Of a stretch of 36,799 nt of DNA, positions 9,270 to 36,443 are shown piece after piece (position 1 is the stretch's first letter; every line of letters begins with the position of its first letter). The stretch is taken from contig DATFFY010000494.1 in NCBI GenBank assembly GCA_035249805.1, positions 1 to 36,799 of the forward strand, read 5' to 3'. The stretch comes from Acidimicrobiales bacterium (GTDB lineage: Bacteria; Actinomycetota; Acidimicrobiia; Acidimicrobiales; VFJN01). A program made the translations under genes and the position numbers. The notes below the pieces were generated by a model. The model did no database searches, had not been told where the DNA came from, and saw only the letters and a program-made list of their open reading frames with translations.

Positions 9270-10151
9270 CTAGTCGGGTCCGGTCAGGAAGCCACAACAG
9301 TGGTGGGCCACGGCGATGGGCGCCTGCGACGCGAGATCGTGCGCGGCGCCGCCGATCTCCACCAGCGGCTGGGGGTGGAGAAGGCGATCGATCATCTGAT
9401 CGGCGGTGGCGCGCGGGAGCACCTCGCTCGCGTGACCTCGGATGACCAGCGTCGGAGCCACGAGGTCGTCGATCGCCCCCCAGAGCAGGGGACCCTCGAT
9501 CCCCGAGCCCACGCGCCCCGCGAGGCCCAGCGCATCGAACGTCCAGATGAGCCGGCCGTCCCCGTCGCTGACGAGGGACCGTCGGAGGAACTCGAAGATG
9601 TTCTCGCGCTTCGAGCGCGGATCCGCTTCGAGCCACCTGTCGACTGCCTCGTCCACCGAAGCGAACGACTCCCACGCTCGATGCCGGAGCAGCTCGAGGA
9701 ACCGCTCCGCAATCGGACCCTCCTCGAAGGCGTCAGGTGCACTCTCGACGAGGACCAGTCGACGCACGAGGTCTGGCCGTCGCGCCGCCAGCAGCATGCC
9801 GGCCGATCCCCCGATCGAGGAGGCGACGATGTCGACGTCCCGGAGATCGAGGTGCTCGAGGAGGGCAGTGGCCTCCCCGGCGAGCGCTTCAGCGGTGTAG
9901 TCCGCAGACCACTCGCTGAAGCCGTGGCCGCGGAGGTCCGGAACGACGACATCGTGCGTCGTGGCCAGCTGCCGCACGAGCGTGTCCCACTGCCACGCGT
10001 GGGCCATGAGGCCGTGCAGCACGAGCGCCGCAGGCCGGCTTGGTCCACCGAGTCTGCGGTAGTGGATGCACAGGTCGCCGAGGTCCACGAGACCGCCCTC
10101 CTCGGCGACGCGGGTCCGTCGGGGAACCACGAGATCCGGCACCTCTCCCAT
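9270..10151 (-). CDS. alpha/beta-fold hydrolase
   Basis: ATG 10151 (MGEVPDLVVPRRT...). LVLHGLMAHAWQWD, nucleophile-elbow-like IVASSIGGS, and C-terminal IGGAAHDL. The 119 upstream codons of the track ORF are mostly intergenic or remnant sequence. Confidence 0.8.
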   Translation of the reverse strand: MGEVPDLVVPRRTRVAEEGGLVDLGDLCIHYRRLGGPSRPAALVLHGLMAHAWQWDTLVRQLATTHDVVVPDLRGHGFSEWSADYTAEALAGEATALLEHLDLRDVDIVASSIGGSAGMLLAARRPDLVRRLVLVESAPDAFEEGPIAERFLELLRHRAWESFASVDEAVDRWLEADPRSKRENIFEFLRRSLVSDGDGRLIWTFDALGLAGRVGSGIEGPLLWGAIDDLVAPTLVIRGHASEVLPRATADQMIDRLLHPQPLVEIGGAAHDLASQAPIAVAHHCCGFLTGPD

Positions 10152-25830: not shown

Positions 25831-26310
25831 ATGCACCGGACCATGACGGGCTTCCACCTGGACGACGTCGGCGACTGGGTGGCGGAGCTGTCCTGCCTCC
25901 ACCGCCAGCACATCCGCCACCAGCCTCCGTTCTGGGAGGCGAGCTGGATCGAGGACCCCGACGAGCGCACCGCCCGCATCGGTGCGCTTCTCGATTGCCC
26001 GCTGTGCGACAGAGCGCAGCTCCCCGATGGTCTGCGTGTCGTCAGGCGCACCCCCACGTGGGACGAGAGATCCACCCCACCAGGCCTGCGGGGAGCACAC
26101 CGCCTGGCCGCCGGGACCTGGGCCGTGCTCGAGGTCGAGGCGGGAACGGTCCGCTTGATCGCCGAGACCACCCCGACGCTCGACGTGACCGTGACCGTCG
26201 GTCACCCTCAGCCGATCCCGCCCGAGCTCGATCACCACATCGAGGTCGGGCCCGACGCCCGGTTCCACGTCCTGTTCCTGGCCCCGCAAGAAACTTCGAG
26301 AAAGAACTAG
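25831..26310 (+). CDS. DUF3565 plus TehB-N-terminal-like (DUF1971) two-domain protein
   Basis: WVAELSCLHRQHIRHQPPFWEASWI...CPLCD (DUF3565-like Cys/His pattern), followed by TPPGLRGAHRLAAGTWAVLEVEAGTVRL (DUF1971/TehB N-domain-like). Confidence 0.65.
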   Translation: MHRTMTGFHLDDVGDWVAELSCLHRQHIRHQPPFWEASWIEDPDERTARIGALLDCPLCDRAQLPDGLRVVRRTPTWDERSTPPGLRGAHRLAAGTWAVLEVEAGTVRLIAETTPTLDVTVTVGHPQPIPPELDHHIEVGPDARFHVLFLAPQETSRKN

Positions 26311-26505
26311 AAAAAACCGACGACCCGGCCTATGGTCGGTCCATGGCTCGTCGGCTCCCTCATCTCGCGTCCGAGGCATGGCTCCTCGGCGACGTGGGTG
26401 ACGACTGGCGCTCCCTCCTCCTTGGCGCACCGCCCGGGCTGGCCTGACCCGCTAGCTCCGCACCGCTCCGGCCAACGCCGCGAGCCACACAAGGAAGGTT
26501 CAACC

Positions 26506-26895
26506 ATGGCACCCGATGTCGCATCGCCGCGCGCACCCGTCGGTCTTTCGAGCGAACGCGTCGTCCTGCTTCGAGCGAAGCTGCTCTGCGAGCTGGCTGA
26601 ACAGCTGCAGCAAGGTGACGAAGCCCGCGCCACCGCCATCGCGCTCACCGGACAGAGCGACGTCGACAGCCTGCTGGAACGTGAAGTAGCGGGCGCGACC
26701 GCGTCCCGAGCCGCCGCGGCAGCCAGCGAGGTCCAGCACGCGCTCGCACGACTCGAGATCGGTACCTACGGCTGCTGTGAGGGATGCGGTGCTCCCATCC
26801 CCTTCGAGCGCCTCGAGGTGATACCGCACACGCGTCGCTGCACCGGATGCTCGTCCTCGGGAGCTCCGCCCCGCGGCTCGGGCAGCGCAGCCTGA
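26506..26895 (+). CDS. TraR/DksA-family C4 zinc-finger protein
   Basis: AAGGAAGG 9 nt upstream of ATG 26506. Coiled-coil-like N-part, then YGCCEGCGAPIPFERLEVIPHTRRCTGC (CxxC-N17-CxxC). Confidence 0.8.
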   Translation: MAPDVASPRAPVGLSSERVVLLRAKLLCELAEQLQQGDEARATAIALTGQSDVDSLLEREVAGATASRAAAAASEVQHALARLEIGTYGCCEGCGAPIPFERLEVIPHTRRCTGCSSSGAPPRGSGSAA

Positions 26896-26989
26896 CCAGC
26901 TCGCGGTGAGCGGGCCGGCTGCCGCCGCCCTCAGGCCCGGCCCGCTCGCCGTCCCTCTGACCCAGCCCAACCAGTCCAAGGAGAGACCC

Positions 26990-27370
26990 ATGACCATGTA
27001 CCGCCCCCTCATCGGTGGGATCGCGCTAGCGCTTGGCCTCACCGCCTGTGGGGATGACGACGCCGCCACCGCTCCCAGCAGCACTCCGAGGTCGGCCGAG
27101 TCCGTCGTCGAGGTCGTGGCGACCGACATCGCGTTCGACGCCGACGCCTACGAGGCCTCCGCCGGCACCGTCACGATCGAGTACCGCAACGACGGTGCCA
27201 TCCCCCACACCCTGGTGATCGAGGACGTCGCGGGCTTCAAGCTCGACGTGCCCAACACGGCCGCGGAGGACAAGGGCACCACCGATCTCGAGTCGGGCGA
27301 CTACGTCCTCTACTGCGACATCCCGGGCCACCGCGATGCCGGCATGGAAGCCACCCTCAGCGTCGCCTGA
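26990..27370 (+). CDS. cupredoxin (plastocyanin/azurin-like) lipoprotein
   Basis: AAGGAGA upstream of ATG 26990. Signal plus lipobox IGGIALALGLTAC. Type-1 Cu ligand pattern IPHTLVI ... YCDIPGHRDAGM. Confidence 0.85.
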   Translation: MTMYRPLIGGIALALGLTACGDDDAATAPSSTPRSAESVVEVVATDIAFDADAYEASAGTVTIEYRNDGAIPHTLVIEDVAGFKLDVPNTAAEDKGTTDLESGDYVLYCDIPGHRDAGMEATLSVA

Positions 27371-27408
27371 GCAGGCACGGCTTCAGGTCCCGTCGTTCCC
27401 GCGGTACC

Positions 27409-27819
27409 TCAGGCCAGCCAGCTGACCCCCAGGATCCGACGGGCAAGGGTGCCGGCCATCCGGCTCGCGTGATCCTTGGCGGCGTCAGCCCGCGGTCCGC
27501 TCCAACGGGCATCGACCGAGGACGCGAAGAGCTCGTACCACCGGTCGAAGTACTCCAGCTGAAAGCTCTGCAGCTCGTGCACGTGCAGGTGGGGTCGAAG
27601 GATGTACCCGTCATAGGACGGGTCGCCGAGCAGGACGCGAGCCCAGTAGTCGATGAGCCTCGGGATGTGCTGTGACCAGTCGACCTCTGCCACCTCGTCG
27701 AAGACCGGGCCGAGCACCGGATCGAACGTGATCTCCCGATAGAAGTCGATGACGAGGTCGTGGATCTCAGTGCGGGTGGCGAGGTCGGGCTTGGCTTCGG
27801 TCATCTGGTCCTTGGTCAC
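27409..27819 (-). CDS. group III truncated hemoglobin
   Basis: IHDLVIDFYREITFDPVLGPVFDEVAEVDWSQHIPRLIDYWARVLLGDPSYDGYILRPHLHVH...YFDRWYELF matches the trHb-III (Ctb-like) pattern. GTG 27819 is preceded by GAAGG. Confidence 0.8.
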   Translation of the reverse strand: MTKDQMTEAKPDLATRTEIHDLVIDFYREITFDPVLGPVFDEVAEVDWSQHIPRLIDYWARVLLGDPSYDGYILRPHLHVHELQSFQLEYFDRWYELFASSVDARWSGPRADAAKDHASRMAGTLARRILGVSWLA

Positions 27820-27874
27820 GGATCCGACCTTCTTTATTCTGCGATCTGCTAGAACAATAGCCTAGGCTGCCGCG

Positions 27875-28312
27875 ATGAGCATCACTCGGTGGAGCCTGGT
27901 CCGGTTCGCTCATGTGCTGGCGGCGATGGGCTGGGTCGGCGGGCAGCTCCTGTTCAGCAGCGTGGTCCTGCCTGTGCTGCGAGACGCGCTGGGTCCCCGG
28001 GAGCGCACTCCCCTGATCCGCCTGGCAGCGATGCGCTTCGCGACGATCGCGAACCTCGTGCTCCTCCCCACCCTGGTCGTCACGGGGGTAGCCCTCGCAT
28101 GGCACCGCGGGGTGCGCTTCGACACCCTCACCGAGCCAGGCTATGGCCGGCTGCTGGCGATCAAGCTGGTGCTGGTCGTCTTGTCGATCGCCTTGGCCGC
28201 CGTGCACGGTGTCCTCGCCACCCGCAAGCCGCGAAGCGCTCGCCCTCTCGGCGTGGCCAGCCTGGGGACCTCCATCACCATCGTCATCTTCGCAACCGCG
28301 CTGGTCCCCTAG
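27875..28312 (+). CDS. 4-TM membrane protein, CopD/HemJ-like (tentative)
   Basis: 145 aa. TM1 RFAHVLAAMGWVGGQLLF resembles the H-x6-W-x-G motif of CopD/HemJ-type proteins, and TM3 is LLAIKLVLVVLSIALAAVHG. No SD. TAGGCT lies 6 nt before the ATG (leaderless geometry). Confidence 0.5.
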   Translation: MSITRWSLVRFAHVLAAMGWVGGQLLFSSVVLPVLRDALGPRERTPLIRLAAMRFATIANLVLLPTLVVTGVALAWHRGVRFDTLTEPGYGRLLAIKLVLVVLSIALAAVHGVLATRKPRSARPLGVASLGTSITIVIFATALVP

Positions 28313-28325
28313 GCCCGGCAGACGT

Positions 28326-28961
28326 TCACCGGTTGGGCTGCGCCGTCGTGCGGAGGTAGTGCGTGTGGGTCGTGAAGCCCTTCGGGAACTCGACCTTCGC
28401 GTCCTCATCGGACACTGCCGGGGAGATGATCACGTCGTCCCCCTCGTTCCAGTCCACCGGCGTGGAGACCGGGAACTCCGCGCTGAGCTGCAGAGCGTCG
28501 AGCACCCGGATGACCTCGTCGATGTTCCGGCCGATCGAGGCCGGGTAGGTGAGTGTGAGCTGCACCTTCTTGTCCGGCCCGATGACGAACACGGTGCGCA
28601 CCGTCGAGGTGGCCAGCGCCTCGGGGTGGATCATCCCGTACAGCTCCGCGACGACGCGGTCCGGGTCGCCGATGAGGGGAAAGTTGGGTGCCACGCCCTG
28701 GGTCGCCGCGATGTCCGCCGACCAGCCCTCGTGCGACGAGACGTCGTTGACGCTGATCCCGATGAGCTTGGTGTTGCGCTTCGTGAACTCGTCCTTGCGC
28801 CTGGCGAAGGCGCCCAGCTCCGTGGTGCACACGGGCGTGAAGTCCGCCGGGTGCGAGAAGAGGACGCCCCAGCTGTCGCCGAGGTACTCGTGCAGGGACA
28901 CCTTCCCCTCCGTGGTGTCCGCGGTGAAGTCAGGGGCTGTCTGGCCGAGCTGGATCGTCAT
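28326..28961 (-). CDS. 1-Cys peroxiredoxin (Prx6-type)
   Basis: APDFTADTTEGKVSLHEYLGDSWGVLFSHPADFTPVCTTELG...LIGISVN...TVRTVFVIGPDKKV...GRNIDEVIRVLDALQ. No resolving Cys seen. Confidence 0.9.
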   Translation of the reverse strand: MTIQLGQTAPDFTADTTEGKVSLHEYLGDSWGVLFSHPADFTPVCTTELGAFARRKDEFTKRNTKLIGISVNDVSSHEGWSADIAATQGVAPNFPLIGDPDRVVAELYGMIHPEALATSTVRTVFVIGPDKKVQLTLTYPASIGRNIDEVIRVLDALQLSAEFPVSTPVDWNEGDDVIISPAVSDEDAKVEFPKGFTTHTHYLRTTAQPNR

Positions 28962-28973
28962 GAGGCGCTGCTT

Positions 28974-28993
28974 TCTCTAGTAAGTACTAGAGA
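28974..28993. promoter_or_regulatory. 20-bp palindrome TCTCTAGTA-AG-TACTAGAGA (operator candidate, site 1)
   Basis: 9-bp perfect arms. Lies 12 nt upstream of the peroxiredoxin ATG (28961) and downstream of the HTH-regulator stop (29031). Core is TCTAGT-N4-ACTAGA. Confidence 0.6.
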
Positions 28994-29030
28994 ATCTAAC
29001 AGAACGGTGTGCCGCCCCGGTCAGGCCTCG

Positions 29031-29690
29031 TCAGGAAGGTTGGAAGTGCACTGCGAGCTCGCAACCGGCCTTGCGCGGATCCTTGGCGACGAGCTTCTCG
29101 ACGGAGGCGTCGGTGCCCTCGACGAGTCCCTCCGCGAGCCCGAGGTGCAGCTGGCACACGGTCTCGCGGTCGGCCATCACCGTGGTCACGAACGGACAGC
29201 GATCGAGGACGACCTTTCCCCGCGCCCCTCGCCGGCGAGCGCGAGGGGCGAACCCCTGGCGTGCCATCGCGATCGTGAGCGTCTCGAGCGGGTCGGCGTC
29301 GGCGGGAAGCTCGGCTCGCATGAGCCTCCCGGCATCACGACCGACCTCCACTGCGGTGCGGCCCGACCTGATGATCTCCGTGAGGAGCACTGTCAGGCGT
29401 TCGTAGGGACCGGTGACCCCCCAGCGGCTGTCCACCCCGGGCGCCACCTCATAGACGAGGCGCGGGCGGCCCCGCCCGATGGCCGCTGCCTTCTCCTCGA
29501 TCACCAGGCCGGCGGCAAGGAGCTTCGCGAGGTGCTGGCGGATCGCGTTGTGGTTGAGACCCATGAGATCGGTCAGCTCCGCGATGTCCACGGGCCGCCC
29601 AGCGCTGGCGACGTGGCTGAAGATCGCATGCCGCGTCGGATCGCCCAAGGCGCGGGCTTCTTGCTGAAGGCTCACCGACGCGGTCGTCAC
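29031..29690 (-). CDS. ArsR-like winged-HTH regulator with a Cys-containing C-terminal domain (paralog of 22840..23544)
   Basis: GTG 29690. LGDPTRHAIFSHVASAGRPVDIAELTDLMGLNHNAIRQHLAKLLAAGLV...GRGRPRLVY. C-terminal VVLDRCPFVTTVMADRETVCQLHLGLAEG...KAGC. Confidence 0.75.
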   Translation of the reverse strand: MTTASVSLQQEARALGDPTRHAIFSHVASAGRPVDIAELTDLMGLNHNAIRQHLAKLLAAGLVIEEKAAAIGRGRPRLVYEVAPGVDSRWGVTGPYERLTVLLTEIIRSGRTAVEVGRDAGRLMRAELPADADPLETLTIAMARQGFAPRARRRGARGKVVLDRCPFVTTVMADRETVCQLHLGLAEGLVEGTDASVEKLVAKDPRKAGCELAVHFQPS

Positions 29691-29712
29691 GCCCGAAGGG
29701 TACCCGACTTCT

Positions 29713-29728
29713 TCTACTCCGTACTAGA
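29713..29728. promoter_or_regulatory. operator candidate, site 2: TCTACT-CCGT-ACTAGA (one arm mismatch)
   Basis: 22 nt upstream of the regulator GTG (29690) in the divergent intergenic region. Shares GTACTAGAG with site 1. Confidence 0.5.
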
Positions 29729-29768
29729 GGCAGAGTTCGCCCGGGATCGGTGGTCATCGTCGTTTTTT

Positions 29769-29784
29769 TCTAGTAGACACTAGA
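29769..29784. promoter_or_regulatory. operator candidate, site 3: TCTAGT-AGAC-ACTAGA
   Basis: Perfect 6-bp arms. Preceded by a T7 run (29763-29769) and ends 1 nt before ATG 29786. Contains TAGACA 6 nt upstream of the ATG. Confidence 0.6.
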
Positions 29785-29785
29785 T

Positions 29786-30187
29786 ATGACTACGCTCACG
29801 GAGTCGACCTCGCAGGCAGCCAGCGACGGGCCCATGGGCGAGGTGCCCAGGACCCTACGAGCGGTGGTCCGAGGTTCGCTCATCGGCGTCGTCGTCGCGT
29901 TCACGGGAGTCGGGGGATCCCTCTACCTGTCTGGCCACGACGCCGGCGTGGCGCTCGGCATCGGAGGTATGGCGGCCTTCTGGGGAGGCCTCGGGTTCGG
30001 CTCCATGCTCGGTGGGACGCTGCACCTCATCCGGCATTCGGGCGAGCCCTACGGCCACTCCCGCGCGCCCGGGTCCCAAGCGGTTCCGTTGGGGAGACGG
30101 GACGCAGAGCTCACCCCGCGGCGGGCCGAGGCCTGGACACGACAGGTCGGAGGTGCCGCCGATGCCCCTGCTTCGTCGGGTTCTTGA
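29786..30187 (+). CDS. small membrane protein (2 predicted TM helices, Gly-zipper-like)
   Basis: 133 aa. SLIGVVVAFTGVGGSLYL and VALGIGGMAAFWGGLGFGSMLGG. No SD (leaderless geometry). The 3' end overlaps the next CDS by 26 nt. M17 (29834) is the alternative start. Confidence 0.55.
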   Translation: MTTLTESTSQAASDGPMGEVPRTLRAVVRGSLIGVVVAFTGVGGSLYLSGHDAGVALGIGGMAAFWGGLGFGSMLGGTLHLIRHSGEPYGHSRAPGSQAVPLGRRDAELTPRRAEAWTRQVGGAADAPASSGS

Positions 30188-32168
30188 TCCCCATCCCTGC
30201 GGGAGCCTCGTCCAGTACGAGCACCAAGGCGGAGGCCGAGGGCTCGCCCGCGCCCGCCGGCTGGGTCCCAGCGGCATCATCGCCGAGATCACCGCCGCCG
30301 GCCTGCGGGGCCGCGGCGGCGCCGGCTTCCGAGCTGGCGTCAAGTGGCAGACCGTCGCCGACAGCGCCTCCAGAACCGCGGGGACGTCCGTGGTGGTCAA
30401 CGGGGCCGAAGGCGAGCCCGGCACCTTCAAGGACAGGACCCTGCTCCGTTGCAACCCCTACAAGGTGCTCGAGGGCGCGCTGATCGCTGCGGTCGCAGTG
30501 GACGCGGCGGAGATCGTGGTCGGCCTCAAGCACGTGTTCGAGCGGGAGATCGCAGAGGTCTCCCGTGCGATCGTGGAGCTCCGGGAGGCGGGCTGGACGG
30601 ATGACCTTCGCGTCCGCGTCGTCGAAGGGCCGAGCAGCTACCTCTTCGGGGAGGAGACCGCGCTCCTCGAGGTCGTGGAGGGTCGGCAGCCCTTTCCCCG
30701 GGTCGATCCCCCATACCGGCGCGGCCTCGACCCCCTGCACCGGGATTCCGGTCACAGCGCGGCCCGTGTGCACCTCGCGGCGATCGGTGGGACCGACAGC
30801 CCGCCCGCGCTCGTCAACAACGTCGAGACCATGGCGAACGTGCCCGGCATCCTCGAGCACGGGCCCGACTGGTACCGAGCGATCGGCACCGACGAGTCGC
30901 CGGGAAGCCTTCTCTGCACGATCACCGGCCACACTCGCCGGCACGCCGTCGGGGAGGTGCCGATGGGCACCACCGTCCGGGAGGCCATCGCGCTGATCGG
31001 CGGGGGGCCTCGGGCCGGGCGACAGGTCCTCGCTGTCCTGTCCGGCGTCGCCAATCCGATCCTGCCGGCCGCACTGCTCGACACGCCGCTGTCCTTCGAG
31101 GCCCTGGCCCGCGTCGGGTCGGGCCTCGGGGCCGGCGGCCTCATCGTCTTCCAGGACGGCACGGACCTCCTCGACGTCGCCCATGCCGTTGCACGGTTCC
31201 TCGCAGTCGAGTCGTGCGGCCAATGCGAGCCGTGCAAGCGAGACGGCCTCGCCATCGCAGACGTCCTGGCGACGATCATCAGCGGACGAGGCAGCGACCG
31301 GGTAGAGCGTGAGCTCGTGGGACGCCTCGAGACGGTGACCCGTGGGGCGCGCTGTGCGCTCGCGACCCAGCAGGAGCAGGTGATCGCGAGCATCGTCGAG
31401 CTCCTCGACGGGCCGCTCGGCGGGTCCGATCCTCGCGGTGATGGTGCAGCGTTGCTCTTGCCTGTGGTGGACATCATCGAGGGCCGGGCCGTGCTCGACA
31501 CCGCCCAGGACACGAAGAACCCTGACTGGACCTACTCGCAGCGAGACTCCGGAAGCTGGCCCGCAGCTCGGCTCGGCAACGCACCGGTCCAGATCGGCCC
31601 AGCCCGGGTCCGGGAGGACCTGACGGCGAGCCGCATGGCATCCGTCGCCGTCCCGGTGACCGGCCCACGGCATCCACTCGCCAGCCTTGCCCACGCGCAC
31701 GATTCGCTCCTCGCTGACCTGAGGGCCGCCACCGAGGCTCCTCCTGCAGAGCGGGCACGGTCTCTACGAGCCCTGGCGAGCAAGCTTCTCGTGCACGTCG
31801 ACGTGACCCGGCGGGTGCTCTACCCGATGGTTCGCCGGGTTGCGGGCACCGAGGGCGACGCCTCGAGCGCGGACGGCTCCCGCAGTGAGCTCGCCGGCTT
31901 GCGCCTCGTCGAGGAGATGGAGAGGAGCAGCAGCCTGGTGGCCACTGATGACGACGCGCTGCAGCAGCTCGAGCAGCACCTACGCGCCCACATCGAGGCC
32001 GAGCGGGATCGAGTGATACCCCTTCTCGTCGCGTCGCTGGACCACGAAGCCCTCGACGCGCTCGAGAACGCGCTCAACGAGGCGCGCCTGCGAGCCCAGG
32101 ACGTCCACGGTCTGGAAGCCTCGCGAACCCGCGCGGCTCTGGAAGCGAACCTCGGAGAGGCCTCGTGA
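30162..32168 (+). CDS. orphan NuoF-like (complex I 51-kDa-type) flavo-iron-sulfur protein with a hemerythrin-like C-terminal extension
   Basis: GGAGG 10 nt upstream of ATG 30162. GLRGRGGAGFRAGVKW (NADH site), VVNGAEGEPGTFKDR, YLFGEETALLEVVEG (FMN site), and ESCGQCEPCKRDG...ARCAL (4Fe-4S Cys). About 230 extra C-terminal residues contain HVDVTRRVLYP and HIEAERDRVIPLL. Confidence 0.8.
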   Translation: MPLLRRVLDPHPCGSLVQYEHQGGGRGLARARRLGPSGIIAEITAAGLRGRGGAGFRAGVKWQTVADSASRTAGTSVVVNGAEGEPGTFKDRTLLRCNPYKVLEGALIAAVAVDAAEIVVGLKHVFEREIAEVSRAIVELREAGWTDDLRVRVVEGPSSYLFGEETALLEVVEGRQPFPRVDPPYRRGLDPLHRDSGHSAARVHLAAIGGTDSPPALVNNVETMANVPGILEHGPDWYRAIGTDESPGSLLCTITGHTRRHAVGEVPMGTTVREAIALIGGGPRAGRQVLAVLSGVANPILPAALLDTPLSFEALARVGSGLGAGGLIVFQDGTDLLDVAHAVARFLAVESCGQCEPCKRDGLAIADVLATIISGRGSDRVERELVGRLETVTRGARCALATQQEQVIASIVELLDGPLGGSDPRGDGAALLLPVVDIIEGRAVLDTAQDTKNPDWTYSQRDSGSWPAARLGNAPVQIGPARVREDLTASRMASVAVPVTGPRHPLASLAHAHDSLLADLRAATEAPPAERARSLRALASKLLVHVDVTRRVLYPMVRRVAGTEGDASSADGSRSELAGLRLVEEMERSSSLVATDDDALQQLEQHLRAHIEAERDRVIPLLVASLDHEALDALENALNEARLRAQDVHGLEASRTRAALEANLGEAS

Positions 32169-32914
32169 AGCTCGTCGTGGGTGTCGATGAGACCCCGGAG
32201 TCGGCGGCGGCGGTCACCTGGGCGGCAGCACTCGCAGGTGCCTCGGCCTCGACCGTCACCATCGCCGAGGTGTTCGAGCCCGAGGAGGCGGAGCGCCCAC
32301 CGGAGCATGCAGCAGAGCTGCGCCGAGAGGCCGGCCATCGACTGACCTCGTGGGTCGAGCGCCTGGGCCTGGGTCTCCCCCACTGCGCTGCGCTCGCTCT
32401 GGAAGGCCGGCCCGTCGGTTCTCTCGCTGCGCTCGCCGACCGCTCCGGAGCGGACGCGTTGATCATCGGCTCGAAGCCCTATGAGGGCGTCAGCCGCTGG
32501 GCGCTGGGCAGCCTGGCCCATGCGCTCGTCCACCACGTCCACTGCCCGCTCATCGTGGTCCCGAACGCCGGCGCGGACCTGACCGGTGGTCAGCTGCTGG
32601 TGTGCGACGACGACACCGAGGGCGGCCGCGTAGCAGTGCAATGGGCCAGGAACCTCGGCGGGCAGGTCGGAGCGGAGGTCGAGGTCGTACGACCGGACGG
32701 CCGCGATCCCGCCCGACAGCTTCGGGCCCTGGCCTGGGAGACCAGCGCTGGATTGCTGGTCGTCCCCGCCCGGTCGCATCACAGCTTCGATGGCTGGCTC
32801 GTCGGCGCCCTGCCCGATGCGCTGCTCCACCACCCCACCTGTCCTGTCGCCGTCCTGCCGTACGGGTACCTGACCCGCTCTCGCGATCTTCTCCGCTCCG
32901 GGAGCCGGCCATGA
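32165..32914 (+). CDS. universal stress protein (tandem USP domains)
   Basis: GTG 32165 overlaps upstream TGA 32166-32168. KLVVGVDETPESAAAV...ALIIGSKPYEGVSRWALGSLAHALVHHVHCPLIVVP, then a second, more degenerate domain ending HHPTCPVAVLP. Confidence 0.8.
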   Translation: MKLVVGVDETPESAAAVTWAAALAGASASTVTIAEVFEPEEAERPPEHAAELRREAGHRLTSWVERLGLGLPHCAALALEGRPVGSLAALADRSGADALIIGSKPYEGVSRWALGSLAHALVHHVHCPLIVVPNAGADLTGGQLLVCDDDTEGGRVAVQWARNLGGQVGAEVEVVRPDGRDPARQLRALAWETSAGLLVVPARSHHSFDGWLVGALPDALLHHPTCPVAVLPYGYLTRSRDLLRSGSRP

Positions 32915-33378
32915 CGGAGCGGCCCGCCTTCCCTGCCCGCCCTCTCCCCCCGGGGTATAGAAACGATCCCGTGAGACTGCTCATCGCAGCGGGCGAGACG
33001 GCTTCTGATCTCTCCGAGCTGCCCGACGGTGTTCGCTCCCTCGTCGACGCGGCGTCGGAGATCCTGGTGATGTCCCCGAGCCTCACGGGACGGCTCAACT
33101 GGTTGACCGGCGACAACGCCCGCGCCCGTCGCCTCGCCGATGACCGCCTCGAAGCCGTCCTCGGCCAGCTCGAGACCGAAGGCGTCGCCGCGTCCGGCAT
33201 GCGCGGAGACGAGCTGCCCAGGACAGCGTTCGCGGATGCCGTCCTGCAGTTCGCCCCTGATCACATCCTCATCGGCCTTCGTTCGGGCGCTCACCGAGGC
33301 TGGCAGGAGCGAGGTCTGCTCGATCACCTCGTCGATCGCTTCCGGTTGCCCTTGACCGTGTTCGTGCTCGACGCGTGA
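32911..33378 (+). CDS. hypothetical protein (alpha/beta, possibly degenerate USP-like)
   Basis: ATG 32911 overlaps upstream TGA (ATGA). 155 aa with good codon bias. No motif recognised. Confidence 0.6.
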   Translation: MTERPAFPARPLPPGYRNDPVRLLIAAGETASDLSELPDGVRSLVDAASEILVMSPSLTGRLNWLTGDNARARRLADDRLEAVLGQLETEGVAASGMRGDELPRTAFADAVLQFAPDHILIGLRSGAHRGWQERGLLDHLVDRFRLPLTVFVLDA

Positions 33379-34274
33379 TGAGTACCCCTGAGGCGACCCC
33401 TCGCCTTCCCGATGTGCACGTCAACAACGTGCTCGTGCCGTTGGACGGGTCGGAGCTCGCGCTCCAGGCGATGCCGACTGCTCGGGTGCTCGCGCAACGC
33501 CTCGATGCGGATCTGCACACCGTCACCGTGGCCAACGGCCCTCCCGACGCCGACCGAGCGCGTGCCCTGTCGGCCGCGGCACTCGGCGTGTCGCCGGACG
33601 ACGAGCGCGTGTCCGTGGTCAACGAAGGTGACCCCGCAGAGGTGATCGCTCGGCACGCCAAGGCGCTCGGCTCGTGCTTGGTGTGCCTAGCGACCCATGG
33701 CCGCGGCAGGTTGAGCGGCGCGCTCGTAGGTTCGGTCGCGCGATCTGTGTTGCACCTCTCGGACGGTCCGGTCGTCGCGCTTGGGCCTTCGGCGGACAAT
33801 CCTGGGTGGTCGCCTCGCCCGAGGGGTTGGCCGGAGCCGCTGTCGGTCTCCCGGATCGTGGCGTGCGTCGACGGCAGCACTGCATCCGAGCAGGTTCTTC
33901 CGCTCGCAACGGGTTGGGCCAGGGCTCTCGAGATGTCACTCACGATCCTCACCGTCATCGATGACGCTCCGACCGCCGTCAGAGCGGCCCGCGGGCAGGC
34001 TCGCTACGGAGGCCACGCGGAACCTGCGACCTACATCGAGGAGCTCGTGGAGCGGTTGCGGTCACAGCTCCCGGACGTGGACGGCGAGGTGGTGCGCGAC
34101 CCGATCGGCGCCGCCGGCGGCATCCGAGCTCACTTGGACCGGCGTCCGGCGGGTCTCGTCGCGTTGACAACCCATGCACGCTCGGGGTTGCAACGAGTCA
34201 TGCTCGGCGCGGCGGCGGCCAGCATCGTCCACGCCTCGGTTGCCCCCTGCCTGGTCTCACCGGTGCGTCCGTGA
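33375..34274 (+). CDS. universal stress protein (tandem USP domains)
   Basis: GTG 33375 or ATG 33378 overlaps upstream TGA 33376-33378. VLVPLDGSELALQAM...CLATHGRGRLSGALVGSVARSVLHLSDGPVVAL, and a second domain IVACVDGSTASEQVL...ALTTHARSGLQRVMLGAAAASIVHASVAPCLV. Confidence 0.85.
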   Translation: MMSTPEATPRLPDVHVNNVLVPLDGSELALQAMPTARVLAQRLDADLHTVTVANGPPDADRARALSAAALGVSPDDERVSVVNEGDPAEVIARHAKALGSCLVCLATHGRGRLSGALVGSVARSVLHLSDGPVVALGPSADNPGWSPRPRGWPEPLSVSRIVACVDGSTASEQVLPLATGWARALEMSLTILTVIDDAPTAVRAARGQARYGGHAEPATYIEELVERLRSQLPDVDGEVVRDPIGAAGGIRAHLDRRPAGLVALTTHARSGLQRVMLGAAAASIVHASVAPCLVSPVRP

Positions 34275-34302
34275 TCCCCCAGGCCAACCGGCGGCGGCGA
34301 GC

Positions 34303-34614
34303 ATGAGCGATCCGACCGTCGTCGAGGAGATCGCGTCACTGCGCGACCGCGGCTACGTCGCTGACTTCAGGGTCACTCTCGCCGGGCAGCTGTACTGCGA
34401 CACCTGCGGCCACGTCCTCGAGGCCAGCGCCGCAGTGATCGAGTCGACCGCTCGCTTCGAGGGAGCATCGAACCCCGATGACCAAGCGGTCGTCTTCGGG
34501 CTTTGGGCGGGCGTGCGTGGGGTCCTCGTGGCCGCCTACGGCCCGACCGCGACGGCAGCGGAGGCCGCCGTCGTGACCGCTCTCTCGCATCCTCCGTCTG
34601 ACCGAGCGAGCTAG
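34303..34614 (+). CDS. small hypothetical protein with a CxxC pair
   Basis: ATG 34303. 103 aa. RGYVADFRVTLAGQLYCDTCGHVLEASAAVIESTARFEGASNPDDQAVVFG. The upstream part of track ORF 34174..34614 is shadow of the preceding gene. Confidence 0.55.
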   Translation: MSDPTVVEEIASLRDRGYVADFRVTLAGQLYCDTCGHVLEASAAVIESTARFEGASNPDDQAVVFGLWAGVRGVLVAAYGPTATAAEAAVVTALSHPPSDRAS

Positions 34615-34647
34615 TCCGCGAAACGCCCGTCGACCTGACCAGGTCGG

Positions 34648-35526
34648 TCAGATGTTCGCTTGCTCTGGAGGCGCGGCGTCGCGCGCCGGGAGCGATGCGG
34701 CGGCACGATCGCTCGTCGGATCCGGACAGTCGGCGCCCAGCGTGTAGCTCGTCATCGATATCGATCCGTAGGCGGAACCCTCGACGAGGACCTGGGGTGT
34801 GTCGCCCGTCGCGGCGGCGAGGGCCGCGATGTAGAGCAGCGGGATGAAGTGGTCAGGGGTGGGCACCGCAAGGCCGAAGTCCTTGTGCTCGACGAGCTTC
34901 AGGACGTCGCCTGGGTTGTCCCGCATCAGCGAGGTGGCAGCCTCGTCGAAGCGGCGGTTCCAGTCGAAGCCGCCGGCAGGCTGGTCCCAGTCGATGCGGC
35001 GGAGGTTGTGCACGAGGTTTCCACTGCCCACGACAAGGATCCCGTGATCGCGCAGCGGGGCCAACCGAGCGCCGAGGTCGAGGTGGTCGTCGAGGGGCTG
35101 CAGAGCGTTGATCGAGAGCTGCACCACCGGGACGTCGGCATGCGGGAACATGTGCGCCAACACCGACCACGTGCCGTGGTCGAGCCCCCAGCTGTCGACA
35201 TCGAGGCCGACCCACCGCGGCTTGACGGTCTCGACGACGAGCTCGGCGACCTCCGGGTTGCCCGGGGCGGGATAGTCGAACGCGAACAGCTCGTCGGGAA
35301 ATCCGTAGAAGTCGTGGATCACGCGGGGACGCGGCATCGCCGTCACCGCCGTTGCGTTGGTGTACCAGTGGGCCGAGATCGAAAGGACGGCGCGGGGTGT
35401 GGCGACGCAGTCGCCGAAGGCGCGCCAGGAGTCCGTGTAGCGGTTGTGCTCGAGGGTGTTCATCGGGCTTCCGTGCCCGACGAACACAGCCGGCATCGTC
35501 GAGAGGTCGGTCACTGGGGGCTCCAT
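34648..35526 (-). CDS. 4,5-DOPA dioxygenase extradiol-like (LigB/YgiD family)
   Basis: MPAVFVGHGSPMNTLE...LSISAHW...VIHDFYGFPDELF...DHGTWSVL...VVQLSI...ILVVGSGNLVHNL. Start at ATG 35526 (GGAG upstream, overlaps the pirin gene by 16 nt) or ATG 35496. Confidence 0.85.
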   Translation of the reverse strand: MEPPVTDLSTMPAVFVGHGSPMNTLEHNRYTDSWRAFGDCVATPRAVLSISAHWYTNATAVTAMPRPRVIHDFYGFPDELFAFDYPAPGNPEVAELVVETVKPRWVGLDVDSWGLDHGTWSVLAHMFPHADVPVVQLSINALQPLDDHLDLGARLAPLRDHGILVVGSGNLVHNLRRIDWDQPAGGFDWNRRFDEAATSLMRDNPGDVLKLVEHKDFGLAVPTPDHFIPLLYIAALAAATGDTPQVLVEGSAYGSISMTSYTLGADCPDPTSDRAAASLPARDAAPPEQANI

Positions 35527-36443
35527 GGCGGCGCTCCGACCTCGATGCGAGGCAGCCGCGAGTCCACCCGGCCGAAGCGCTCAGCCTCCGCCATCCAGTC
35601 GCGGTGCGCAGCGATGACCTCGTCGCGCGTGCGGGCGACGAAGTTCCACCACATGAGCACAGGCTCGTCCAACGGCACGCCGCCGACGACGAGGGCCCGA
35701 GTGGGGGTGTCGACCGTCAGGCTGAGCTCGTCTCGGCCGACACCGACGTAGGCGAGCTGTCCGGGCTCGACAGCCCTCCCCTCGATGAGCACCGCCCCGG
35801 CGAGCACGACGAGTGCGTGCTCGTAGTCGGTGCGGAGCGGAAGGGTTGCTCGGCCGGGCCGGAGAGCGAGGTCGAAGCCGGCGTGGTCGGTGTCCCGCCG
35901 GGCGGGCGACCTGACCTCGACGAGATCGCCGACCAGAACGGTGGCGCTGCCGTGCTCGAGCTCGACCTTCGGCAGCTCCGAGTGGTGCTCGAACGAGGCC
36001 GCCCCATGTCGGCTGTGCGACGGCTGTGCCACCCACAGCTGGACGCCGTGGACGTCGCCACGAGGGTGGCCCGTGCCCTCCTCGGAGTGGGCGACGCCGT
36101 TGCCGGCGGTCATGAGGTTGAGCTGACCCGGCCTGATGAGCTGCTCGGTGCCGAGCGAGTCGCGGTGCAGCGCTTCGCCGGCCAGCAGCCAGGTGACGGT
36201 CTGCAGGCCGATGTGAGGGTGAGGGGCGACACCCAGGCCGCCCTCGTCGAGCGTCGCGGGGCCCATGTGGTCGATGAAGCACCAGGCGCCAACCGTGCGG
36301 CGGGCTCGACGGGGCAACGCCCGCCGTACAGGCAGCGCGCCCACCTGGCTGACTCGGCTCTCGGTGATCTCGAGCGTGGCCGAGTGCGCAGCGACCGGCT
36401 CCTCGTCGATGCCCGCGTCCGCGGAGGTGACGGGACCGCTCAC
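35511..36443 (-). CDS. pirin-family protein
   Basis: GTG 36443 preceded by AGAGGGA. VRRALPRRARRTVGAWCFIDHMGP...APHPHIGLQTVTWLLAGEALHRDSLG...LNLMTAGNGVAHSE...GVQLWVA. Confidence 0.85.
   Translation of the reverse strand: MSGPVTSADAGIDEEPVAAHSATLEITESRVSQVGALPVRRALPRRARRTVGAWCFIDHMGPATLDEGGLGVAPHPHIGLQTVTWLLAGEALHRDSLGTEQLIRPGQLNLMTAGNGVAHSEEGTGHPRGDVHGVQLWVAQPSHSRHGAASFEHHSELPKVELEHGSATVLVGDLVEVRSPARRDTDHAGFDLALRPGRATLPLRTDYEHALVVLAGAVLIEGRAVEPGQLAYVGVGRDELSLTVDTPTRALVVGGVPLDEPVLMWWNFVARTRDEVIAAHRDWMAEAERFGRVDSRLPRIEVGAPPWSPQ

Follow-up and report, generated by a model that had tools for sequence, protein, structure and literature searches.

A NuoF-superfamily protein with a hemerythrin-homologous tail encoded beside universal stress proteins in Acidimicrobiales

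The contig DATFFY010000494.1 of an Acidimicrobiales bacterium (GenBank assembly GCA_035249805.1), whose 36,799 nucleotides were analysed in full and are called the window below, carries a forward-strand gene at 30162..32168 whose product we name NuoF-Hr. The protein consists of three parts: a NuoF-type core, a family-specific cap and a helical domain homologous to hemerythrin/HHE domains. It is flanked upstream by the gene of a predicted two-transmembrane (2-TM) protein and downstream by that of a tandem universal stress protein (USP), and, as judged from the sequence, these three genes form an operon that is new in this analysis. The gene and its parts are listed below.

30162..32168, + strand: whole gene NuoF-Hr (open reading frame, Pfam, NCBIfam, homologues, AlphaFold2 model)
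30162..31400, + strand: NuoF-type core, residues 1-413 (Pfam, Foldseek, residue alignment to NuoF and NfnB, invariant columns)
31449..31571, + strand: family-specific cap, residues 430-470 (conservation, secondary structure, end point of the short forms)
31680..32162, + strand: hemerythrin/HHE-homologous helical domain, residues 507-667 (PF01814, profile search against the PDB, hhalign, weak Foldseek matches)

Gene boundaries, NuoF-type core and cap

The open reading frame (ORF) is free of stops over 668 codons and translates into a 668-residue protein plus stop. Its G+C content by codon position (0.77/0.51/0.85, in a window of ~70% G+C) is consistent with a genuine gene. We place the start at ATG 30162, since the first residue of numerous homologues aligns with residue 1 of the protein. 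The in-frame GTG at 30012, considered as an alternative start, was dropped because homologues start at the residue matching ATG 30162 and because the stretch 5' of this ATG is also part of a conserved small ORF in another frame. The protein is already domain-annotated in public databases (NCBI entry HJR26978.1), and one JGI entry adds the label "hemerythrin-like domain-containing". An AlphaFold2 (AF2) model of the full-length protein, built on 91 family sequences, reached a mean predicted local distance difference test score (pLDDT) of 88.4 and a predicted template-modelling score of 0.81.

A preliminary description of this DNA, made from its letters, had recognised hallmarks of the complex I 51-kDa subunit in the N-terminal part, and both domain searches and conservation agree with it. 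Pfam Complex1_51K (PF01512) matches residues 43-228 (E = 4e-38; 131.1 bits, cutoff 31.2) and NADH_4Fe-4S (PF10589) matches residues 338-413 (E = 2.4e-10; 40.6 bits, cutoff 23.5), while an SLBB-like stretch at residues 253-287 scores 25.6 bits, slightly below the 27-bit Pfam cutoff. The motifs quoted in that description are in place: the Gly-rich loop for NADH and flavin mononucleotide (FMN), GLRGRGGAGF, at residues 47-56, YLFGEETALLE at 160-170 (YLFGEE at 160-165), and the ligands of an N3-type [4Fe-4S] cluster at C352, C355, C358 and C398. NNVET lies at residues 219-223. Among 91 aligned members, the residues of the nucleotide, flavin and cluster motifs, the four cysteines included, are nearly all invariant or at least 90% conserved. 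Consistently, Foldseek with the AF2 model returned NuoF, FdsB, NfnB and HydB chains as neighbours, with NuoF of mycobacterial complex I at the top (8e9h_F; E = 4e-30, template-modelling (TM) score 0.84, target-normalised).

The core is nevertheless only ~30-33% identical to solved homologues, and structure and residue alignments prefer no subfamily among them. Against the NCBIfam NuoF equivalog TIGR01959 it scored 265.9 bits, where the cutoff is 558.65, and it likewise stayed below the cutoffs of NF010120 and NF008436. NuoE, NuoG, hydrogenase and formate-dehydrogenase domains were sought in the ~40 scanned ORFs of the 36.8-kb window and none was found, as had been noted earlier. Because the equivalog score falls short and the partner genes are missing there, the core is by its sequence a NuoF-superfamily protein and not complex I NuoF. 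Two family-wide departures accompany this placement. The canonical NADE(S/G)EP reads N(G/A)AEGEP (residues 81-87, window 30402-30422), with an invariant Ala82 for the Asp of every aligned solved NuoF homologue, and a low-confidence insert of ~20 residues (182-206, window 30705-30779) comes after the conserved PPY-RRG.

The cap that follows the core is a β-hairpin (residues 435-445) and then an invariant series, K452-x-P454-D455-W456...S463-G464..P467. It is present in every member, long or short, and the short forms terminate just past its motif. A poorly conserved linker (~471-506) joins the cap to the tail helices.

The hemerythrin-like tail

The C-terminal domain had also been described beforehand as hemerythrin/HHE-like, and profile searches bear this out. 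Pfam Hemerythrin (PF01814) matches residues 511-622 with 34.5 bits, or 37.6 bits when the tail region is searched in isolation (cutoff 25.3), and it matches 23 of 28 diverse family C-termini. When fusion tails were compared with 12 canonical stand-alone HHE proteins, hhalign returned a probability of 99.2% (E = 2.8e-19). The best match of the tail profile in the PDB was the hemerythrin-like protein (HLP) of Mycobacterium kansasii (6q09, hereafter Mka HLP; E = 7.6e-4), followed by YtfE (E = 0.02); phmmer with a single tail sequence against the PDB gave coiled-coil noise only. Foldseek matches of the tail included Hr-like PF0695 (3cax) and the hemerythrin domain of FBXL5 (3u9j, target-normalised TM score 0.54), with hemerythrin 4xpx lower. 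Searching 1.84 billion representative proteins with the tail yielded 97 proteins, mostly the same fusion or its fragments. At their weak end stand stand-alone proteins of 146-271 residues, 12 of which keep the invariant H, H-x3-E, Y-P and H. These sequence comparisons make the homology of the tail to hemerythrin/HHE domains solid, and on them the tail is a divergent HHE domain.

Membership of narrower families was tried and rejected. The tail does not belong to the RIC/YtfE family, as there is no ScdA_N match and the YtfE profile match is weak. The ribosome-binding persister family of PA2171 was set aside at 21 bits against a cutoff of 190; that family serves to remind us that an HHE-like protein may be something other than an enzyme (PMC13041383).

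DSSP applied to the AF2 model places the tail helices at residues 507-525, 528-588, 597-625 and 628-667, the last being an additional fifth helix. The candidate ligand positions are H513, H545, (T549), Y554, E576, H610 and E614. They correspond to the metal ligands of Mka HLP as listed below, two independent profile alignments (to 6q09 and to the stand-alone HHE proteins) being in agreement.

Mka HLP H11 (helix 1): H513 (the 6q09 alignment itself shifts by one residue, to H12)
Mka HLP H45: H545
Mka HLP E49 (bridging Glu): T549, lost
Mka HLP Y54: Y554
Mka HLP H71: E576
Mka HLP H105: H610
Mka HLP E109: E614

His, Tyr or Glu is kept at five of the seven positions, and the sixth is a His-to-Glu change. 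Of 108 long forms, 100 retain H513. Strict invariance in the tail is seen at P555 and R559, neither of them a ligand. The HHE ligand signature H...H-x3-E...H...H-x3-E/D is reproduced in part: H513 and H610-x3-E614 are present, whereas T549 stands at +4 of H545 and E576 takes the place of the helix-3 His. The H-x3-(D/E) motifs read into the tail by the preliminary description fared accordingly. Only H610-x3-E614 is such a motif; HVDVTRRVLYP turned out to be H545-x-D547 with Thr at +4, and HAHDSLL is H511-x-H513-D514. As to whether the tail has a hemerythrin-like fold with metal ligands, a question on which that description had staked its reading, sequence homology and five of seven ligand positions speak for it, and the incomplete canonical signature and the weak Foldseek matches speak against it.

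A canonical di-iron site, as first proposed, is not supported: the bridging Glu is Thr549, the helix-3 His is Glu576, H545 and H610 are replaced in many members, and the domain has repeatedly been lost. Judging from the residues that are kept, the tail may hold a remodelled mono- or di-iron site. About 30 long forms with Tyr545, usually accompanied by Leu610, retain H513, D547 and E573; this subfamily could have either a different metal site or no site at all.

Family distribution, gene neighbourhoods and a shared palindrome

A word-indexed protein search found more than 100 proteins of 640-690 residues with the same architecture at 46-63% identity, together with ~12 matches of ~1000 residues that have an extra C-terminal USP and ~10 of ~480-520 residues without the tail. 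The few labelled homologues carry the taxon labels of Acidimicrobiia, Microthrixaceae or Actinomycetota metagenome-assembled genomes (MAGs). The phylogenetic distribution of the fusion, to which the preliminary description had pointed as informative, was followed with family-specific peptide patterns, which gave at least 585 confirmed places in a species-representative genome collection. Taxonomy and neighbour clustering were carried out on the best 80 of these places, and nearly all of the 80 are Ilumatobacteraceae, Microthrixaceae, Acidimicrobiales/Acidimicrobiia or unclassified Actinomycetota/Actinomycetes; two are labelled otherwise.

Among 195 members with complete cores, 64 have no tail, 115 have a hemerythrin-like tail and 16 (~8%) have a hemerythrin-like tail plus USP. 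We mapped these states by parsimony on a midpoint-rooted neighbour-joining tree of the cores, a crude tree in which a few "short" proteins are possibly fragments. The long form was placed at the root with ~six tail losses, one of which founds a short clade of 55 members, and the USP fusions are nearly monophyletic. On this sequence tree the hemerythrin-tailed long forms look ancestral. One short form, P0009, is a complete gene of 477 codons for amino acids on a 508-kb contig, and no separate hemerythrin gene was found within 10 kb of short forms. Some Acidimicrobiia have two paralogues of the short form, as seen in locus pairs from the same MAG (L030/L071, L046/L078, L050/L077 and L027/L067).

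In the window, NuoF-Hr is accompanied by the following genes.

29786..30187, + strand: predicted 2-TM protein, 133 residues, motif AFWGGLGFGSM (translation, tblastn conservation)
32165..32914, + strand: tandem USP (Pfam Usp, E = 5.5e-32, two stretches)
33375..34274, + strand: second tandem USP, 460 bp downstream (Pfam Usp, E = 1.8e-29)
29031..29690, - strand: ArsR/HTH_20-type regulator, 219 residues, divergent (Pfam, NCBIfam)
28326..28961, - strand: 1-Cys peroxiredoxin (Pfam AhpC-TSA and 1-cysPrx_C; NCBIfam NF009668, 213.6 bits, cutoff 211)

The 3' end of the 2-TM gene shares 26 nt with the start of NuoF-Hr. The 2-TM protein matches no Pfam or NCBIfam family; tblastn detected homologues of it 5' of P0009 (L084) at 56% identity and 5' of P0006 (L085) at 37-49%, the two closest relatives with DNA, and AFWGGLGFGSM is common to them. 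At the other end, the GTG start of the USP overlaps the NuoF-Hr stop codon (GTGA), and the identical 4-nt overlap occurs at the P0007 and P0006 loci. The second USP may be part of the operon.

The preliminary description had raised the case that orthologs always stand beside NuoE/G-type partners. They do not: the loci of nine relatives with gene tables and Pfam matches contain no NuoE/G-type, hydrogenase or formate-dehydrogenase gene, and clustering of three genes on each side of the 80 loci revealed no recurrent neighbour of this type. No conserved partner of any kind emerged from the 80 loci, where GGDEF/EAL/PAS proteins turn up most often (11 loci), followed by ABC ATPases (9 loci). USP genes are enriched close to the target, with 7 of 284 genes at most two genes away against 2 of 662 farther off (odds ratio 8.3, p = 0.004). 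In the window's clade (P0006, P0007 and P0009), each locus has most of a set comprising the HTH_20 regulator, the small TM protein, the NuoF-like gene and an overlapping or adjacent USP. A 1-Cys peroxiredoxin (Prx), glutathione peroxidase, CMD, DSBA or DUF2231 also lies near the gene in this clade, the 1-Cys Prx in the window and at the P0007 and P0006 loci. In the clade of triple fusions (NuoF-Hr-USP), USP genes lie upstream and an Fe/Mn superoxide dismutase (SOD) beside or downstream, along with DSBA and DUF2231; an alternative oxidase is found at one locus and SufBCD a few kb away at another. An S30AE ribosome hibernation factor, a G6PD fragment, SufBCD and an alternative oxidase are among the neighbours at L001 (6127-8001), L086 (1324-5337) and L087 (1-697). 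Together with the USPs they lend these neighbourhoods, as read from the gene content, a flavour of dormancy and stress.

The intergenic region 5' of the NuoF-Hr operon is AT-rich and contains two copies of a 16-bp palindrome with the consensus TCTAGT-N4-ACTAGA. Four copies were observed in the window against 0.2 expected.

29769..29784, no strand: perfect palindrome TCTAGTAGACACTAGA, ending one base short of the ATG of the 2-TM gene; probable operator
29713..29728, no strand: second operator-like box TCTACTCCGTACTAGA, 1 mismatch, in the divergent intergenic region; L084 equivalent at 9636
28976..28991, no strand: perfect palindrome TCTAGTAAGTACTAGA, 15 bp upstream of the peroxiredoxin start; homologous L085 site
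26296..26311, no strand: copy with 2 mismatches, upstream of the DksA-like gene

Ten more copies occur in five related loci (L084 at 8231, 9636 and 9688; L085 at 9604 and 13217; L086 at 1280, 7049 and 15134; L087 at 7958; L005 at 723), where they are placed as follows.

L084: two boxes 5' of the small-TM/NuoF operon and one 5' of DUF2231
L085: one box 5' of the small-TM/NuoF operon and one 33 bp 5' of the 1-Cys Prx gene
L087: box 43 bp 5' of the NuoF-Hr-USP gene
L005: box 100 bp 5' of the NuoF-Hr-USP gene
L086: box between the SOD gene and the USP/NuoF-Hr-USP operon, and another 5' of sufB

Of the 11 palindromes with no more than one mismatch, 10 sit in intergenic DNA immediately before a NuoF-Hr, USP, Prx, SOD or sufB gene or operon; the eleventh is the upper of the two boxes in the window. 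The other ~80 loci contain zero copies, and 7-mer enrichment in 83 upstream regions brought out no convincing motif common to the family; by these counts the palindrome is clade-specific. Its placement suggests that it is probably the operator of an oxidative-stress/iron-sulfur (Fe-S) regulon. Because the same palindromes precede peroxiredoxin, SOD and suf genes, NuoF-Hr would belong to a regulon of oxidative stress and Fe-S homeostasis, and the positions of the motif point to a common regulator for NuoF-Hr, USP, Prx, SOD and Suf.

The divergently encoded HTH_20 protein is the candidate binder of the palindrome. Its C-terminal part of ~150 residues has no domain match and contains three cysteines, C165, C179 and C210, and may be a redox- or Fe-S-sensing domain. 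An ortholog, 75% identical, occupies the same position in L084. Identification of this regulator as SufR was considered and is not supported, the match being 19 bits against a cutoff of 178.8 and covering the HTH region only.

An Rfam scan of the window gave no match, and a promoter and terminator scan of 28200-34700 gave nothing beyond chance. Farther from NuoF-Hr, a DUF3565+DUF1971 fusion gene is followed by a gene for a DksA/yteA-like C4 zinc finger (window 25831-26895), with the 2-mismatch palindrome between them. Just upstream of the peroxiredoxin, genes for a cupredoxin-like and a short CopD-like membrane protein flank an unassigned 136-residue ORF (27409-27819, - strand) within window 26906-28312, a group that may serve copper handling. 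Genes for a LigB-type extradiol dioxygenase and a pirin lie downstream of the second USP, in tandem and with overlapping ends (window 34648-36443, - strand).

Proposed function and comparison with known systems

By its motifs NuoF-Hr contains an intact NADH/FMN/[4Fe-4S] module; no complex I partner genes were found, the tail is derived from HHE domains and retains the majority, though not the whole, of the ligand positions, the gene is physically and translationally coupled to a USP gene, and its operator-like palindrome recurs before antioxidant and Fe-S assembly genes. The reading that we tentatively prefer, and that we place somewhat short of an even call, is that NuoF-Hr is a self-contained cytoplasmic NADH-oxidising flavo-iron-sulfur protein that arose from the NuoF module and feeds electrons to its own hemerythrin-like tail, as part of an oxidative-stress/Fe-S regulon. 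It would work without NuoE or NuoG. NADH would reduce FMN, from which single electrons would pass, by way of the N3-type [4Fe-4S] cluster, to the C-terminal hemerythrin-like domain, acting as a built-in acceptor or regulator, or, in the short forms, to another acceptor. The tail would probably carry a non-canonical iron site of H513, H545, Y554, E576, H610 and E614, and this site would reduce or sense O2, H2O2 or NO, or else deliver or mobilise iron. The USP would modulate the activity of NuoF-Hr, and the divergently encoded ArsR-type regulator would probably control the operon via TCTAGT-N4-ACTAGA. Inferred in this scheme are that the cofactors are loaded, that electrons move within the polypeptide and that the tail binds metal, as well as what the substrate and the regulator are. 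The antioxidant genes in its context make a role of NuoF-Hr in stress more likely.

Several observations weigh against this reading. In the 108 long forms the column of the helix-2 bridging Glu, 549, is T, V, M or N and never acidic, although every canonical HHE relative keeps the Glu. H545 is kept in 73 of the long forms and replaced by Tyr in 31, H610 is kept in 60 and replaced by Leu in 27, and Tyr545 and Leu610 mostly coincide. This ligand analysis weakens the central chemical proposal, namely that N3 feeds a working iron site. Foldseek matches with the tail model (pLDDT 84.6) are weak, at E ~0.3-2, and generic helical bundles score alike. DSSP moreover shows helices 2 and 3 as one continuous helix (528-588, window 31743-31925) in both models, which would leave no closed four-helix site. 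The core, in turn, would function without the tail, as the tail was lost about six times, including in the founder of the 55-member short clade, and gene context is variable outside the USP-linked clades. As regards the helix, HHE homology predicts a turn near 560-566, where some relatives have Pro-Pro; the continuous helix, very confident in both AlphaFold models, could be an over-prediction or a hint of a domain-swapped dimer.

The same degenerate ligand set fits a sensor as well as an enzyme, and NuoF-Hr might accordingly be a signalling device. Its NuoF module would sense the NADH/NAD+ ratio by how far FMN and the cluster are reduced, its hemerythrin-like domain would read O2, iron or NO, and the output would run via the USP to stress or dormancy entry, with no net turnover. 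We judge this unlikely. USPs, which perform no redox chemistry, are nonetheless fused or translationally coupled to the protein here; neighbours in other clades are often signalling proteins (GGDEF/EAL/PAS at 11 of 80 loci; STAS, sigma-factor and CBS at three loci each), and P0033 is adjoined by a gene for a ribosome hibernation factor and a STAS gene. Many fused hemerythrin-like domains are established sensors, among them DcrH, Bhr-DGC and FBXL5 (summarised in PMC6993866). However, the catalytic residues of an NADH dehydrogenase are all strictly conserved, beyond the need of a sensor that only binds, and about a third of the complete cores (64 of 195) have neither USP nor hemerythrin tail. 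We know of no sensor built on a NuoF module and found no paper on one.

That tail-less short forms are common and complete, as exemplified by P0009 and the 55-member clade, and that the invariant signature of the family is the cap motif and not the tail, would suit a general diaphorase. Electrons would then go to an external acceptor, namely ferredoxin, quinone or a membrane partner reached through the 2-TM protein or DUF2231, and the tail would serve as a lid, structural or regulatory, without metal. In the window's clade the small membrane protein is conserved and translated together with the NuoF-like protein, DUF2231 membrane proteins are repeatedly met close by, and the invariant tail residues P555 and R559 are not metal ligands. 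This reading is rather improbable, since H513 is almost always retained in the long forms and the H/Y/E/H/E set in about two thirds of them, the 80 loci show no conserved ferredoxin or quinone-binding partner beside the gene, and the small membrane protein is limited to one clade. Least probable by far, and in our judgement highly improbable, is an ordinary subunit of complex I, of an NAD-linked hydrogenase or of a formate dehydrogenase whose partners are encoded elsewhere in the genome. Its fold and cofactor motifs are indeed as in NuoF, HoxF, FdsB and NfnB, and the genome is visible over 36.8 kb only. The equivalog score (266 versus 559), the ~30-33% identity to every solved homologue with no subfamily preferred, the presence of two copies in several MAGs and the lack of an adjacent NuoE/G partner in any locus examined all speak otherwise. 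In addition, the cap and tail follow the N3 helical bundle, which would be the side on which NuoG docks.

Returning to the preferred reading of a self-contained NADH oxidiser, its boldest version is that NuoF-Hr represents a new kind of antioxidant or repair enzyme. An autonomous NuoF module would pass electrons through the [4Fe-4S] cluster to a remodelled hemerythrin-derived iron site, which would reduce H2O2, O2 or NO or mobilise iron for Fe-S repair. The enzyme would be gated by a bound USP and would share one redox-responsive regulon with SOD, 1-Cys Prx and Suf in Acidimicrobiia. We consider this version unlikely. The NuoF-type modules known so far are subunits dependent on NuoE-like and NuoG-like partners, and a partner-free family would show the NADH input module of complex I operating alone and would offer a compact soluble model of FMN-to-N3 electron transfer. 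If the tail binds iron, NuoF-Hr would be an NADH-driven hemerythrin-like enzyme or sensor and would supply the physiological reductant that has so far been unclear for mycobacterial HLPs and RIC. Soil, activated sludge and marine water commonly contain Acidimicrobiia, a poorly studied group; a regulon defined by the operator (NuoF-Hr, USP, SOD, Prx and Suf) would give a first handle on their oxidative-stress response. USPs, about whose biochemical roles little is clear, would likewise gain a defined redox partner.

The preliminary description knew of no characterised protein with this architecture, and our full-text literature searches, whose coverage excludes most subscription journals, likewise found no paper on a hemerythrin-NuoF/Complex1_51K fusion. 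NuoF-Hr is a real and widespread family for which we found no characterisation, and it is a combination of known kinds, not a new category.

With NuoF/Nqo1/51-kDa proteins (HoxF, FdsB, NfnB and HydB among them) it shares the fold, the Gly-rich loop, the GEE motif, NNVET and the Cx2Cx2C...C ligands of N3. Unlike NuoF, it has the Ala82 motif change, the 182-206 insert, the cap and the hemerythrin-like tail, and NuoE and NuoG were not found nearby. The tail resembles Mka HLP (6q09; Rv2633c group) in its fifth helix after the four-helix core and in a Tyr-Pro closing helix 2, the place taken in Mka HLP by the ligand Tyr54. The mycobacterial protein, a monomer that stands alone, has the ligands H11, H45, E49, Y54, H71, H105 and E109 (PMC6993866), whereas the tail of NuoF-Hr is fused to an NADH dehydrogenase module and has Thr for E49 and Glu for H71. 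Mka HLP has been reported (PMC8913304) as a nitric oxide peroxidase with weak catalase activity, a precedent for chemistry on reactive oxygen species and NO.

The hemerythrin-like domain of YtfE/RIC has been implicated in Fe-S repair and NO reduction (PMC6993866). It is the second-best solved-structure match for the tail, and in L086 the operator also precedes sufB; NuoF-Hr differs in having no ScdA_N, an incomplete ligand set and a weak match, and RIC for its part has no fused NADH-oxidising module. Stand-alone HHE proteins (P0176-P0210, 146-271 residues, metagenomic) have in common with the fusion family the helix-1 His, the helix-2 His...Tyr-Pro and the helix-4 H-x3-E, whereas in the fusion family the helix-2 Glu is gone and so, for the most part, is the helix-3 His. 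Among flavodiiron proteins and rubrerythrins, those with a fused NAD(P)H-oxidoreductase module carry electrons within one polypeptide from NAD(P)H through flavin to non-heme iron that reduces O2, NO or H2O2. They are functional analogues of NuoF-Hr only, the folds of both halves being unrelated.

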